Shown: piece after piece, positions 10,799-21,274 of the stretch
Layout: each line of letters begins with the position of its first letter
Numbering within the stretch: position 1 is the stretch's first letter
NCBI GenBank assembly: GCA_963801475.1
Contig: CAWDEX010000001.1
Coordinates: 2,567,019 to 2,631,018 of the forward strand
DNA length: 64,000 nucleotides
Source: an uncultured Acidobacteriota bacterium
GTDB lineage: Bacteria > Acidobacteriota > Thermoanaerobaculia > UBA5066
Reading direction: 5' to 3'
The notes under the pieces: model-generated
Told to the model about the DNA's origin: nothing
The model's input: only the letters and a program-made list of their open reading frames with translations
Database searches by the model: none
Position numbers and translations under genes: made by a program

Positions 10799-12085
10799 TC
10801 AGTTCAGGCCCCAGCGGCGAAGGCGGTAGTAGAGCGTCCGGACCGAGATGCCGAGGAGCCGCGCCGCCTCTTCGCGGTTTCCTCCGCACCGGCGGAGGGC
10901 CTCGAGGAGCGCTTCGCGGCCCCGGGTCTCCTCGTCGAGCGAAGGAGCGGAGGCTCCCGCCGCAGACGGGGCGAGCCGCAGGTCCTCGGGGCGGATCGGC
11001 TGACCGGCCCGGATCACGACGGCGCTCTCGAGGACGTTCCGGAGCTCGCGGACGTTGCCCGGCCACGGATGCCCCTCGAGCGCCGCGAGGGCCGCGGCCG
11101 TCAGTTCGGGCGGCGACACGCGGTGCCGGACGGCGAGCCGCGCGACGAAGTGGCGGGCGAGGCGTTCCACGTCTCCCGTCCGCTCGCGGAGCGGCGGCAG
11201 GATGACCGGCACGACCGCGAGCCGGAAGTAAAGGTCCCGTCGGAAAGCACCCGACTCGGCCTCCCGCACGAGGTCCCGGTTCGTCGCCGCGACGATCCGG
11301 ACGTCCACCGGGAGGTCGCGCTCGCTTCCGACGCGGCGGACGATCCTCTCCTCGAGCGCCCGGAGGAGCTTGGACTGGAGCGCCGCCGGCAGCTCGCCCA
11401 CCTCGTCGAGGAAGAGGGTGCCGCCCGACGCCTCCTCGAACCGACCCGCGCGCGCCCGGTCGGCTCCCGTGAAGGCTCCCTTCTCGTGCCCGAACAGCTC
11501 GCTGTCGGCCAGGGTCTCGGGAAAGGCCGCTGCGTTGACGGCCACGAACGGGCCGGCGGCGCGCCTCGAGCGGGTATGCACGCGTCGGGCGATCACCTCC
11601 TTCCCCGTTCCCGACTCTCCGAGGACGAGGACCGGAACGTCCGCCGCGGCCACCCGGTCGACGAGCTCCAGCAGCTCCTTCATCCGGGCGTCCCCCGTCA
11701 CCAGCTCCACCTCGCCCGCCTCCGGGGCCAAAAGGCGCCCCGCGAGCGCGAGGAGTGCCCGAGGCGACTCGAGCGGCTTCGTCAGGTAGTCCGCCGCGCC
11801 GAGCCGCACGGCCTCCACGGCGTCGGGGATCGTTCCGAAGGCCGTCAGAAGGACGAACGGAGGGAGGGCCGGAACCTCGGCGCGGCCTTTCCGCAGGAGC
11901 GCGAGACCGTCCAGCTTCGGCATCCGCTGGTCGGCGAGAACGAGGTGGAACGCCTCCCGGCGGAGGAACAGGAGCGCCTCCTCGCCGTCGCGCGCCTCGG
12001 TGACGGCGTGGCCCTCCCCCTCGAGGATGTCCCGGAGGAGCGCGCGGAAGGACGGATCGTCGTCGGCGACGAGGACCCTCGCCAT
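10799..12085 (-). CDS. Sigma54-dependent response regulator (NtrC family: receiver + AAA+ + Fis-type HTH)
   Basis: MARVLVADDDPSFRALLRDILEGEGH...LADQRMPKLDG (receiver). GESGTGKEVIARRVH (Walker A). ELFGHEKGAFTGA (GAFTGA). LFLDEVGELP (Walker B). C-terminal NREEAARLLGISVRTLYYRLRR. Confidence 0.9.
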   Translation of the reverse strand: MARVLVADDDPSFRALLRDILEGEGHAVTEARDGEEALLFLRREAFHLVLADQRMPKLDGLALLRKGRAEVPALPPFVLLTAFGTIPDAVEAVRLGAADYLTKPLESPRALLALAGRLLAPEAGEVELVTGDARMKELLELVDRVAAADVPVLVLGESGTGKEVIARRVHTRSRRAAGPFVAVNAAAFPETLADSELFGHEKGAFTGADRARAGRFEEASGGTLFLDEVGELPAALQSKLLRALEERIVRRVGSERDLPVDVRIVAATNRDLVREAESGAFRRDLYFRLAVVPVILPPLRERTGDVERLARHFVARLAVRHRVSPPELTAAALAALEGHPWPGNVRELRNVLESAVVIRAGQPIRPEDLRLAPSAAGASAPSLDEETRGREALLEALRRCGGNREEAARLLGISVRTLYYRLRRWGLN

Positions 12086-12086
12086 C

Positions 12087-18610: not shown

Positions 18611-20585
18611 CTACACCAGGAAGAGAAGGATCACGACCGTCAGCATGATGTAGAGGATGTAGATCTGGACGAGCCCCCGCTGAAGGTACCGGCCCCACGA
18701 TGCCAGCCGGGCCCCGAATTCCAGCGACGGCACAAGGAAACGGTCCAGCACCGTGTCGAAAACGTGGCTCTCGTACCGTTCGGACGGCGGGAAAAGGCGT
18801 GTGATGACCGGGGTCGTCGCGCGCGGAAGAAGCGCCCAGCGGAAGAACCCGACCGTCCAGGACGCGAACGACGACGACGAGTACTGCATTCTCGGGGTCG
18901 GTGCGCGCATAGCCGCAGTCCCACGTGGCGGCGCGGCGGGCCTGCCGCGTCCTCCGAACGAGGACGAGGCCGACCACCGCGGAAAAGGCGGTCAGGCCGA
19001 GCCCGAAGAGGCCGAGCGCGCCAAGAGGCGCGAGGGAGGGAAGGCGCGGCAGGCGCGAGGCGAGCTCCGGAGCGGCGACGGCGGCCGCTTTCTCGAGAAA
19101 CGGCACGACGGCGAGCGGATAGAGGCCGATGCCGGCGCAGAGAAGGGCGAGGACCGTCATCGGAACGACCATGAGCGCGGACTCGCGCCCGGAGGCGACT
19201 GCCTCGGAACGCGGCTGGCCGAGGAACACGGACCCGAAGGCCTTCACGAAGCAGGCGAGCGCCAGCGCGCCGACGAGGGCGAGAAGGGGGACCGCGAACG
19301 CGCCCCAGATCCAGCCGGGGCCCACGCCGGCCGGGAGCGTCGACAGGAGGCCGAGATAGAGGAGCCACTCGCTGACGAAGCCGTTGAGCGGCGGCAGGCC
19401 GCAGATGGCCACGGCCCCGGCGAGGAATCCGAGGCCCGCGGCCGGCATCGTCTTCAGAAGTCCTCCGAGGCGGTCCATCTCCCGCGTTCCGGTGGCGTGG
19501 ATCACCGAGCCCGCCGAGAAGAAGAGAAGCGACTTGAAGAGGCCGTGGTTGACGACGTGCAGCAGGCCGCCTCCGAAGCCGAGGAGGACCCAGGCCGGTT
19601 GCCGGAGCGAGCGGCCGACGAGGCCGAGCCCCAGCCCCATCGCGATGATCCCGACGTTCTCCACGCTGTGGTAGGCGAGAAGCCTCTTCAGGTCGTGCTG
19701 CCCGAGGGCGAAGGCGACCCCCAGGACGGCCGAGGCGAGGCCCATCGCGAAGAGAACGGCGCCCCAGAGAAGCGGCGGGTCGGGGAAGAGGGTCGTGACC
19801 CGGAGGAGGCCGTAGATCCCCATCTTGATCAGGACGCCCGACATCAAGGCCGACACGTGGCTTGGCGCGGCGGCGTGGGCCCCGGGGAGCCAGACGTGAA
19901 ACGGCATCAGGCCCGCCTTCAGGCCGAACCCGACGAGGGCCAGGAAGAAGATCGCGCTCCCCGCTGACGAGGCAGCGACGCCCGACGGCAGCTTCGAGAT
20001 CTCGAAGGAGCCGTGAGCCGTCCGGAGGACGGCGAAGAGGCCGAACAGGAGCAGGGTCCCGGCGTGCGTGGCGACGAGGTAGAGCCATCCCGCCTCGCGG
20101 ACCCTTTTCTCGTGTCCTTCGGTGGTGACGAGGAAGAAGCCCGCGAGGGCCATCAGCTCCCAGGCCGTCAGGAAGAGAAGGGCGTTCCGGGCCACGACGA
20201 CGAGTGCCATCGCACCGGTAATCGCGCCGTAGAAGAGGCGGAGCCGAGGCGCGCTCTCAGGGTGTTCGCGAAGCGGCCAGTACGACTCGCCGTAGAGGGC
20301 ACCGAGCCCGGAGACGAGGAAGAGCGGGACCAGAAAGACGGCCGAGAGGACGTCCACCTCGACCGCGAAGAGCCCGCCGGGGACACCCCACGGAAAAACC
20401 ATCTTCGCCGGAGCGCGGCCGGCCGTGAGCGCCAGTGCCGCGCCAGCGAGGCCGAGGGTCGAAGCCGCCACGGAGAGGGCCGTCGCGAGATGCGCGCCTC
20501 TCTTCCGGAGGGGCCCCGGCAGGAGCGCCGGGAAGCCGCTCATCGCGGCAAGGCCGGCGGCCACGAGGACGAGAGCGACCGTCAT
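18611..20585 (-). CDS. NuoL/HycC/HyfB-like antiporter-type membrane subunit, with one apparent 1-nt insertion near 18902
   Basis: MTVALVLVAAGLAAMSG...WELMALAGFFLVT...GLMPFHVWLPGAHAAAPSHVSALMSGVLIKMGIYG...AYHSVENVGII. After ...ATWDCGYA the sequence continues in the frame of ORF 18611..18910 as PTPRMQYSSSSFASW..., the conserved HyfB-type C-terminus. 1975 nt minus 1 gives 658 codons. Confidence 0.8.
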
Positions 20586-21274
20586 CGTCCGCTTCGCCGG
20601 GACCCGACCGCCGTCTCGATCTCCCGCGCGAGGCCGAGGATCTCTTCCGCTCCCGCGCTCTTCGTCACGGCGCTTCGGAACCGACCGTCCTGGAGAAGGT
20701 ACGAGAGTCGCGACAGCAGGTGGAGATGCGTCCGGATCGTGGTCGTCACGAGGGTGAAGAGCGCGTGGACCGGCCGGCCGTCGAGAGCGCCGAAGTCCAC
20801 GGGCTGCTCGAGATAGCAGAGCGAGACCAGCGGCTCGTCGACGTGGAGAACGATCGGGTTGCGGACGTGCGGAATGGCGATCCCGTCGCCGATCGCGGTC
20901 GAGCCGAGCGCCTCGCGCGCGAGGAGGACGGCGAGGAGAAACTCGCGGTCGACGCCGGGCGGGAGCGCGAGGAGGCCGACCACGGCGCGCAGGGTCTCCT
21001 GCGGAGTCTTGCCTCGCAGGCCGGGGTGGACGCCTCCCCGGGCGAGCGCCTCCGAAATCGACGCCCTTTCGATCGGCAGGATCCCGGAGTCCTGGAAGAT
21101 CCGCGGCGAAACGTCGACTCCCTCGGCCGTCGCCCACTCCAGGAGCTCGGAGCGGTTGAACCGGATCTCCTCGTTCATCCGGATCGCGGGCAGGTCCCGC
21201 GTCTTCATCCAGTCGTAAATGGCCTTCTCCGAGACCCCGAGGAGATCGGCAGCATCGCTTACGGTCAGTTTCAT
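20582..21274 (-). CDS. HTH (MerR/excisionase-type) + PTS EIIA(Ntr)-like domain protein
   Basis: ATG at 21274. MKLTVSDAADLLGVSEKAIYDWMKTRDLPAIRMNEEIRFNRSELLEWA is the HTH_17-like part. LAREALGSTAIGDGIAIPHVRNP...ALFTLV is EIIA-2/PtsN-like, with a phosphorylatable His in IPH. The stop overlaps the hyfB-like start (ATGA). Confidence 0.75.
   Translation of the reverse strand: MKLTVSDAADLLGVSEKAIYDWMKTRDLPAIRMNEEIRFNRSELLEWATAEGVDVSPRIFQDSGILPIERASISEALARGGVHPGLRGKTPQETLRAVVGLLALPPGVDREFLLAVLLAREALGSTAIGDGIAIPHVRNPIVLHVDEPLVSLCYLEQPVDFGALDGRPVHALFTLVTTTIRTHLHLLSRLSYLLQDGRFRSAVTKSAGAEEILGLAREIETAVGSRRSGR

Follow-up and report, generated by a model that had tools for sequence, protein, structure and literature searches.

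An Ehr gene cluster with a putative HTH-EIIA(Ntr) regulator and an adjoining sigma-54 module in an uncultured member of the Acidobacteriota

The window analysed here, 64,000 nt of contig CAWDEX010000001.1 from an uncultured bacterium of the Acidobacteriota (assembly GCA_963801475.1), contains nine genes on the minus strand, running from 21274 to 10799, among them those for a complex of the energy-converting (or Ech) hydrogenase related (Ehr) class. From the analyses described below it appears probable that two units are arranged head to tail on this strand, an Ehr operon equipped with a helix-turn-helix (HTH)-EIIA regulator and a separate sigma-54 module. Unit 1 (21274-13289) would comprise the gene for the HTH-EIIA regulator followed by six structural genes, ehrA-B-C-D-L-S, and unit 2 (13292-10064) the kinase and sigma-54 activator genes together with that for a small secreted protein rich in histidine and methionine. 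Judged from sequence comparisons, the HTH-EIIA gene stands first with near constancy in loci of this Ehr family from many phyla and is predicted to be dedicated to Ehr. A more specific proposal is put forward tentatively and with considerable doubt: Ehr complexes may own a conserved regulator of the HTH_17-EIIA(Ntr) type that binds TGTCCA and is switched by the nitrogen-related phosphotransferase system (PTS(Ntr)), and the Ni-Fe pocket of their large subunit may have been rebuilt from residues invariant in the family (D212, C451, H452, C493, C502, H504), maybe into another catalytic or metal site. While the Ehr class itself is already known, no open-access report was found of the HTH-EIIA protein that accompanies it across phyla with a recognisable predicted operator.

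Nine clean genes were obtained by translation from the previously assigned coordinates. The G+C content of the window is about 70%, and many spurious open reading frames (ORFs) are present for this reason. The predicted Ehr operon and its junctions are arranged as follows.

20582-21274, minus strand: gene 1, provisionally named ehrR; 230 residues with HTH_17 (1-51), linker and EIIA(Ntr)-like domain (73-228)
20582-20585, minus strand: ATGA overlap at the junction of genes 1 and 2
18611-20585, minus strand: gene 2, ehrA; HyfB/NuoL-like antiporter-type subunit, broken by a 1-nt insertion at about 18906
17689-18606, minus strand: gene 3, ehrB; NuoH/HyfC-like membrane subunit (Pfam NADHdh, 1.3e-33)
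17687-17691, minus strand: TGATG at the junction of genes 3 and 4, the start codon ATG of gene 4 at 17689 overlapping the stop codon of gene 3
17051-17689, minus strand: gene 4, ehrC; HyfE-like membrane subunit (NCBIfam PRK11492, 3.2e-22, full length)
Between genes 4 and 5, minus strand: gap of 3 nt
15614-17047, minus strand: gene 5, ehrD; HyfF/NuoN-like antiporter-type subunit (Pfam Proton_antipo_M, 2.6e-46, and NCBIfam HyfF models)
15614-15617, minus strand: TTGA overlap at the junction of genes 5 and 6
14097-15617, minus strand: gene 6, ehrL; large subunit of the NuoC+NuoD/HycE-like type (Complex1_30kDa and Complex1_49kDa), without the Ni-Fe cysteine ligands
Between genes 6 and 7, minus strand: gap of 10 nt
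13289-14086, minus strand: gene 7, ehrS; fusion of a 2x[4Fe-4S] HycF/NuoI-like and a HycG/NuoB-like part (Fer4_7; Oxidored_q6, 1.9e-27)
13289-13292, minus strand: GTGA overlap at the junction of genes 7 and 8

A sequence-only reading of this DNA had described nine genes joined by overlaps or by gaps of no more than 10 nt. When the junctions were read again, they were as described, and the domain assignments made for all nine genes were each backed by Pfam and NCBIfam. That reading had also proposed to look for the nine-gene arrangement in related genomes. It is present with identical order in L001, a relative locus on a 1.78-Mb contig with a gene 1 of 89% identity, and, as far as the contig end, in L003, a relative locus at 98% identity. 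Since the order recurs in these two loci, the arrangement is not due to chance.

Pfam searches with the structural genes revealed Proton_antipo_M twice, NADHdh and Oxidored_q6, and the product of unit 1 would be a membrane-bound relative of hydrogenase-4 and complex I with two antiporter-like subunits. The best NCBIfam matches of the structural genes bear the names of hydrogenase-4 subunits, and the solved structure closest to the large subunit is HycE (PDB 7z0s_E, 3.2e-44), followed by Mbh (3.4e-35) and Nqo4 (4.4e-30). These matches could indicate a genuine [NiFe] hydrogenase of the Hyf/Hyc type with maturation genes located elsewhere in the genome, but every NCBIfam score stays below the equivalog cut-off, and the alignment with HycE showed that four of the four Ni-Fe cysteine ligands are replaced in the large subunit. 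VCGICGFAH of HycE is aligned with VAGDTTAGH (CGIC to AGDT), and the C-terminal DPCYSC with NLSYCG. In 20 large-subunit homologues of 64-85% identity, the two replacement motifs show no or almost no variation. Because the Ni-Fe site is lost, a true hydrogenase is very unlikely, and the probability of one matured from distant genes is close to nil. Among the window genes scanned, neither hyp maturation genes nor a gene for an endopeptidase were detected. All these comparisons of the large and small subunits were made pairwise and against the PDB.

A large subunit devoid of Ni-Fe ligands is described for Ehr in the literature (PMC6349859, PMC10284858), where the class is defined by the very set of features found in this module and its role is stated as unknown (PMC6349859; PMC10284858; bioRxiv 765248). 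Assignment of the structural genes to an Ehr-type module, as already suggested from the sequence, is supported by their having HycE as nearest solved relative and yet none of its four Ni-Fe cysteines; the module is best regarded as a member of the known Ehr class. The likeness in gene order to ehrABCDLS of Geobacter, which the sequence-only reading had noted, also proved correct. The window order HyfB, HyfC, HyfE, HyfF, large subunit, small subunit equals ehrA-B-C-D-L-S, is in agreement with the names ehrA-1, B, C, D, L and S used for G. sulfurreducens (PMC7894505, supplement), and is syntenic with the Geobacteraceae loci L028 and L038-L040.

Comparisons with known complexes delimit the module further. 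Subunit set and order equal those of Ehr from G. sulfurreducens (EhrA-1, B, C, D, L and S, GSU0739-0745; EhrA-2, GSU0734), and the large subunit shows 58-61% identity to its Geobacteraceae counterparts, but the window has only one HyfB-like gene, while the Geobacteraceae and about 40% of the loci have two, and carries the sigma-54 module as an addition. Genes 2-7 also follow the order HyfB, C, E, F, G, H+I of hydrogenase-4 from E. coli (hyfABCDEFGHIJR); equivalents of HyfA, HyfD and HyfJ are missing, however, those of HyfH and HyfI are fused, the Ni-Fe cysteines of E. coli HycE (PDB 7Z0S) are absent, and no formate dehydrogenase or hyp genes are found nearby. With respect to the [NiFe] hydrogenases of group 4 (Hyf/Hyc/Ech/Mbh) in general, the large subunit is homologous but lacks the N- and C-terminal CxxC ligands. 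Of respiratory complex I (Nuo), only homologues of NuoL/M/N (two copies), NuoH, NuoCD, NuoI and NuoB are present, not the 11-14 subunits of that enzyme, to which NuoA/J/K and, where NADH is used, NuoEFG belong.

In the small subunit, the cysteine motifs CPAECRDCADACP, CLFCPECERACP, GGCNAC, GACAISGG and PGCPP are all intact, and the electron wire is therefore retained. The ehrS fusion is kept in relatives, where it was recovered as one single tblastn segment. The complex is predicted to possess an intact chain of three [4Fe-4S] clusters and, with the Ni-Fe site lost from its large subunit, would not act as a hydrogenase. Most likely, Ehr couples oxidation of a soluble low-potential donor, for example ferredoxin, to ion translocation. 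Thr213 of the large subunit occupies the position of the second HycE cysteine, a position which may correspond to that of the quinone-site tyrosine in the 49-kDa subunit of complex I. Cysteine and histidine residues invariant in the family are C171, H172, C273, C451, H452, C493, C502 and H504 (gene 6, 14097-15617). Some of them lie at or beside the positions once held by Ni-Fe ligands and may make up a remodelled site.

The protein specified by gene 1 combines two domains, HTH_17 (PF12728, 1.7e-13) and PTS_EIIA_2 (PF00359, 1.4e-22), the latter matching PtsN structures at about 1e-13. Its AlphaFold2 model (mean predicted local distance difference test score of 83.4) shows a winged HTH, a 20-residue linker of low confidence and an EIIA domain, and in Foldseek searches the top matches of the model were PtsN (target template modelling score of 0.80). 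In the alignment of the gene 1 family, which has a mean column identity of 63% across phyla, the HTH_17 domain is intact in all members, and the motif GDGIAIPH of the PtsN type (GDGIAIPHVRNP), which includes His136, is invariant. The EIIA domain had been called PtsN-like before, and conservation of this phospho-histidine motif bears that out. The protein shares the EIIA-2 fold and the phosphorylatable histidine with PtsN, but differs from it by the fused N-terminal winged HTH, by linkage to Ehr instead of rpoN, and by NCBIfam scores of 59.8 (TIGR01419) and 53.9 bits against cut-offs of 138.7 and 221. Regulators of the MtlR, LicR and LevR class are PTS-controlled and contain an EIIA(Mtl)-type domain. 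Gene 1 likewise joins a DNA-binding domain to an EIIA of the PF00359 type, a possible acceptor of PTS phosphoryl groups, but without EIIB-like domains or the PRD domains that separate DNA-binding and EIIA-like parts in that class, at a far smaller size (230 residues) and with an HTH_17 of the excisionase/MerR type. A winged HTH of this small family is also found in BldC and Xis, which have no sensor domain, and the predicted operator described below, a direct repeat, is like that of BldC (PMC5859096).

Linkage of gene 1 to Ehr was followed in two directions. In a species-level survey, in which the large-subunit alignment was searched against one genome per species, at least 597 Ehr loci were obtained. 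The best 80, which were examined, belong to Planctomycetota, Verrucomicrobiota, Geobacterales, Acidobacteriota, Spirochaetota, Gemmatimonadota, Fibrobacterota, Elusimicrobiota and others, and the core of genes 2-7 is kept in them wherever enough DNA is present. Two HyfB-like genes occur in 21 of 55 species-level loci. Of the 55 loci with enough upstream DNA, 41 have a gene 1 relative no more than 9 kb away. In the reverse direction, the gene 1 alignment was used to collect 80 metagenome loci. In every one of the 58 with at least 600 nt of downstream sequence, gene 1 is immediately followed on the same strand by a HyfB-like gene. In some loci, gene 1 is placed between two HyfB-like genes or, as in Geobacter, divergent from the main operon. 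No conserved gene for a redox partner or a PTS protein emerged when ORFs from the flanks of 71 loci were clustered; the only recurring families were histidine kinases of a generic kind, in 8 loci, and an ABC ATPase, in 4.

A second HTH_17-EIIA gene was noticed after ehrS or before the large-subunit gene in three loci (L169, 13764-14477; L082, 6733-7410; L069, 9270-9875). In L019, L039 and L079, the regulator gene and ehrA-2 are divergent from ehrA-1, in line with the positions of GSU0734 and GSU0739.

In the open-access literature, no link was found to be reported for Ehr with EIIA or PTS, for PTS_EIIA_2 with HTH_17, or for GSU0735 and GSU0738. The HTH-EIIA gene at the head of the operon, described by the sequence-only reading as a feature outside known loci, is real and without an open-access report, but it is not an oddity of this locus; the association, which was to be checked in related genomes, is present in 58 of 58 metagenome and 41 of 55 species-level loci. 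The notion of a PTS-gated respiratory module would be reasonable if it is restricted to the EIIA protein.

To what DNA the protein might bind was assessed with 104 non-redundant regions upstream of gene 1, which were compared with shuffled sequences. TGTCCA is present in 52 of the 104 regions, against 4.8 +/- 2.0 in shuffles, and tandem pairs of TGTCCA spaced by 9-11 bp in 43, against 0.2 in shuffles. The sites are concentrated 31-50 nt before the start codon (55 of 69). In other phyla than that of the window, a promoter of the sigma-70 type is recognisable, TTGACA-N17-TAnAAT, and the tandem WTGTCCA-N3-WTGTCCA overlaps its -10/+1 region. A palindromic operator was also considered, but the search for dyads upstream of gene 1 was empty, and direct repeats emerged instead. 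BldC, a small HTH_17 protein, binds direct repeats head to tail (PMC5859096).

The most economical reading of these data is that gene 1 specifies an autoregulator under the control of its EIIA domain. In most phyla, HTH-EIIA would most likely bind the tandem TGTCCA sites, 10 bp apart, over the -10/+1 region of its own sigma-70 promoter, and binding would lead to autoregulation of the ehr operon. Since the predicted operator overlaps the promoter at -10/+1, the protein is probably a repressor. The EIIA histidine would set its activity, probably through phosphorylation of the NPr/HPr type.

Several observations weigh against this proposal. In other phyla, about one upstream region in two has no exact TGTCCA. 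In promoters of the Geobacter type (L019, L039, L079 and L040, all Geobacterales), TTGAC-N17-TAnACCATAT-T6-CATGTGTCAT replaces the TGTCCA repeats. No TGTCCA was found before gene 1 in any of four loci of the window lineage (the window itself, L003, L001 and L002), and their HTH domains carry D21, I/V31, E36 and I37 in place of the R, Y, Q and Y of most members (in the window R21D, Y31I, Q36E and Y37I). With the operator absent and acidic substitutions in the HTH, autoregulation by gene 1 may not apply to this lineage; four changed HTH positions together with absent repeats would suggest that the DNA target of HTH-EIIA has been changed or lost there. Finally, genes for EI, HPr or NPr of the PTS were not detected among the window genes scanned, which leaves the phosphoryl donor hypothetical. 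The sole enzyme using phosphoenolpyruvate (PEP) in the window is a pyruvate phosphate dikinase (49333-52140; TIGR01828, 1325 bits), which is not PTS enzyme I.

Some of these data would also fit a PtsN-like partner that attaches to the Ehr complex and modulates its activity without being mainly a transcription factor, with the action of PtsN on TrkA or KdpD as precedent. The mean column identity of 63% exceeds what is usual for a regulator, gene 1 is strictly linked to the gene for the first membrane subunit, with the ATGA overlap joining genes 1 and 2 in the window, a second copy lies behind ehrS in some loci (L169, L082), and the window lineage has altered residues at presumed DNA contacts and no operator. 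Such a role is nevertheless unlikely, for HTH_17 is kept by every member, direct repeats at fixed promoter positions are strongly enriched, and in other phyla genes 1 and 2 are often separated by 100-300 nt, so that coupling of the two genes is not general.

Upstream of gene 1 in the window, a different conserved element is found.

21275-21342, minus strand: conserved leader/promoter block with a -10-like hexamer TAGAAT at 21329-21324 and a GC-rich potential stem-loop

This leader of about 68 nt is common to the window, L003, L001 and L168; conservation reaches down to the last of these, in which gene 1 is 75% identical, and the sequence farther upstream is unrelated. The block (21275-21342) contains neither TGTCCA repeats nor a sigma-54 site. 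A hairpin was predicted in it by RNAalifold, with no compensatory changes among the aligned leaders.

If the proposed regulation is true, expression of Ehr would be tied to PEP/pyruvate or to the carbon/nitrogen state via PTS(Ntr). Ehr is encoded at no fewer than the 597 loci mentioned above in species-representative genomes of many phyla, and open-access papers still call its role unknown. A dedicated regulator with recognisable sensor and operator offers a way to find the signal that switches the operon on, and this signal would in turn hint at the substrate and role of Ehr. Cultivable hosts suited to the regulator question are Geobacter, Geomonas and Geothrix.

The second unit starts within the stop codon region of ehrS and contains one gene more than had been assumed.

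12087-13292, minus strand: gene 8; membrane histidine kinase, ZraS/AtoS-like (Pfam HisKA and HATPase_c), of the add-on module
Between genes 8 and 9, minus strand: gap of 1 nt
10799-12085, minus strand: gene 9; NtrC-type activator (Response_reg; Sigma54_activat, 6.9e-68; HTH_8), of the add-on module
10757-10793, minus strand: CTGCA(A/G) repeats, about 100 nt upstream of the sigma-54 element
10665-10680, minus strand: sigma-54 -24/-12 promoter-like element, TGGCCCGAACCGTGCG, between genes 9 and 10
10122-10637, minus strand: gene 10; small secreted His/Met-rich protein with a signal-peptide-like N-terminus and a GMHGHGPHG segment
10064-10094, minus strand: intrinsic terminator with a 14-pair stem (10 GC pairs) and a T-tract, closing the co-directional cluster

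The nine genes which the sequence-only reading let end with the sigma-54 pair at 10799 are real, but a tenth co-directional gene (10122-10637) follows. The terminator at 10094-10064 is the only strong terminator-like site within 9900-21800. In the same region no promoter of the sigma-70 consensus was found, nor any Rfam family within 9900-22000.

Several lines of evidence separate the pair from Ehr. The kinase and activator genes adjoin ehr only in the closest relatives, L001 and L003, and in L168 no kinase follows ehrS. On the other hand, kinase (59-72% identity), activator (77-78%) and small gene are found together, without ehr, in L165-L167, and two of these three loci (L165 and L166) neighbour genes of the metal- or metalloid-resistance type. 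The small gene is downstream of this kinase-activator pair in four of four loci examined. In searches for sigma-54 promoters, sites of the strict consensus with up to two mismatches occurred at chance level and none near gene 1, and the looser pattern TGGY-N8-TGC was found neither upstream of gene 1 nor in the intergenic gaps of the operon. The only intergenic TGGY-N8-TGC site in or beside the cluster of genes 1-9 is TGGCCCGAACCGTGCG. This element is kept in L001 (TGGCCCGGGCCGTGC), L167 (TGGCCCGAGACGTGC), L165 (CGGCACGAGGCGTGC) and L166 (CGGCACGAAGCGTGC), and the CTGCA(A/G) repeats upstream of the small gene are kept in the same four loci; in L001 both are conserved amid an otherwise diverged spacer. 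Element and repeats directly precede the small gene even where two genes are inserted behind the activator gene. The repeats are likely an enhancer, or upstream activating sequence, for the gene 9 activator, and gene 10 is likely the target of the sigma-54 pair. From its distribution without ehr and from the separate promoter before gene 10 it follows that the pair is part of an independent three-gene module. Earlier, the pair had been taken for a dedicated regulator of Ehr; its absence from L168, its occurrence without ehr in L165-L167 and the position of the sigma-54 site contradict this.

Gene arrangement at the border of the two units has to be considered in this context. The start of the kinase gene overlaps the stop of ehrS (GTGA) with no terminator between them; co-transcription and some coupling are possible, which is a point against two separate units, and read-through from the ehr promoter into unit 2 is possible for lack of a terminator. 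Together with the 1-nt gap between genes 8 and 9, the lack of a strong terminator inside the cluster and the order shared by L001 and L003, this overlap would be expected if all nine genes formed one functional unit in which the sigma-54 pair regulates Ehr jointly with the EIIA-HTH protein. This is decidedly improbable, because the pair is missing behind ehrS in all other Ehr loci examined, L168 included, and the closest approach is seen in L033, where kinase- and activator-like genes lie some 4 kb downstream. The occurrence of pair and small gene apart from ehr, with a regulator of 77-78% identity, and a conserved sigma-54 site before gene 10 but none before gene 1 argue in the same direction. 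Two units are thus the better description, and unit 2 would have landed behind ehrS recently, in a recent ancestor of the window and L001. For annotation, this means that a conserved seven-gene Ehr unit can be separated from an unrelated module of the sigma-54 stress type beside it.

E. coli carries hyfR, a gene for a sigma-54 activator, in its hyf operon. The claim that a sigma-54 system inside such a unit was novel is for this reason overstated, although HyfR is a stand-alone activator and not part of a two-component pair.

The module resembles ZraS-ZraR-ZraP, in which a kinase and a sigma-54 activator are likewise combined with a small, secreted, His-rich protein expressed from a sigma-54 promoter. 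This architecture, with -24/-12 element and upstream repeats, was seen in five loci. The proteins are not orthologous, however. NCBIfam matches of gene 8 to ZraS and AtoS are far below cut-off (ZraS, 93.8 against 479), gene 9 scores 365 against 760 for ZraR, and gene 10 has no match to the ZraP/CpxP family. In addition, the small gene is downstream on the same strand in the window, while zraP is divergent. The gene 10 protein belongs to no Pfam or NCBIfam family; it has 44 homologues, mostly from unnamed organisms, and the named ones are nearly all Thermoanaerobaculia. A Met/Gly-rich run, GMGPGRGPAMGRGGMGPS, is present in the periplasmic part of the kinase. This run and the GMHGHGPHG segment of gene 10 suggest metal sensing or binding, and the small gene would be driven by its own enhancer and sigma-54 promoter in a ZraSR-ZraP-like manner.

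The HyfB-like gene of the window contains one extra G at about 18906 (18900-18910), inside a GCGCGC run, by which the last 95 codons or so are shifted. Model positions 5-576 of NCBIfam PRK06521 are matched in the frame starting at 20585 and positions 574-667 in the ORF 18611-18910; the canonical C-terminus of HyfB (RMQYSSSSFA...) is located in this other frame. The true stop codon of ehrA is at 18611-18613, 4 nt ahead of gene 3, and the 7-nt overlap of genes 2 and 3 belongs to the shifted-frame product. Intact EhrA proteins of 657 and 658 residues are encoded in L003 and L168, with stop codons 3-4 nt before gene 3. The extra G is the sole insertion/deletion in a 9.85-kb alignment of the window and L003, and is also absent from L001 and L168. 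A programmed frameshift was considered and rejected, since the frame is intact in L003, L001 and L168.

An assembly error or a true inactivating mutation could be responsible, the former being at least as likely. With the gene frameshifted, the complex may be inactive in this genome, a further point that counts against a functional Ehr operon here. A locus in decay, with a real frameshift, would be consistent with the absence of the extra G from L003 and L001, with the changed HTH residues in a lineage whose canonical regulator-operator pair has been lost, and with a 4.9-kb insertion just upstream (21352-26298) that holds a frameshifted HsdM gene. It is a rather unlikely explanation. The insertion/deletion is a single one in 9.85 kb, is located in a GCGCGC run of a 2.98-Mb contig possibly derived from long reads, and the remaining ehr genes are intact with 94-98% protein identity to L003. 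In L001, the DUF748 gene is split into three calls (1-3472) and a one-base shift affects the end of ehrA (12586). These changes look like assembly errors of long reads and are relevant to the frameshift in the window.

Redox partners of Ehr were looked for in the vicinity. No partner gene conserved near Ehr was found in the window or in the flanks of 71 related loci, and the previous statement that a partner had not been identified stands in so far as none is encoded nearby in these sequences. That statement had been accompanied by the claim that hyp, NuoEFG and formate dehydrogenase are missing. For the first two this is correct among the window genes scanned, but for formate dehydrogenase it is uncertain. 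At 63461-64000, the N-terminus of a molybdopterin oxidoreductase is encoded, cut by the window end and located 42 kb from ehr, with Fdh-alpha as best, albeit weak, match. Upstream of this gene, pieces of a GltD/NfnB-like NAD(P)H oxidoreductase were seen at 58961-61328, apparently split over frames. Both are possible redox-partner candidates, 42 kb away from ehr.

Further changes are apparent in the surroundings of the cluster. In L003 and L004, a DUF748/AsmA-like gene is located about 140 nt upstream of gene 1, and the 4.9-kb insertion of the window lies between these two genes. It contains a DUF433 gene (21580-22290, plus strand) and a gene for the type I methylase HsdM (22341-23765, minus strand). 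The mid-domain of HsdM is in another frame (23102-23416), suggesting two frameshifts, and HsdR or HsdS were not identified. Downstream, the cluster is followed by mutL and a rhomboid gene. The region 34600-41000 has a poor coding signal and includes a serine recombinase-like ORF (36057-37523) and a gene for a Kelch-repeat protein (39183-40103), and could be mobile or foreign DNA.

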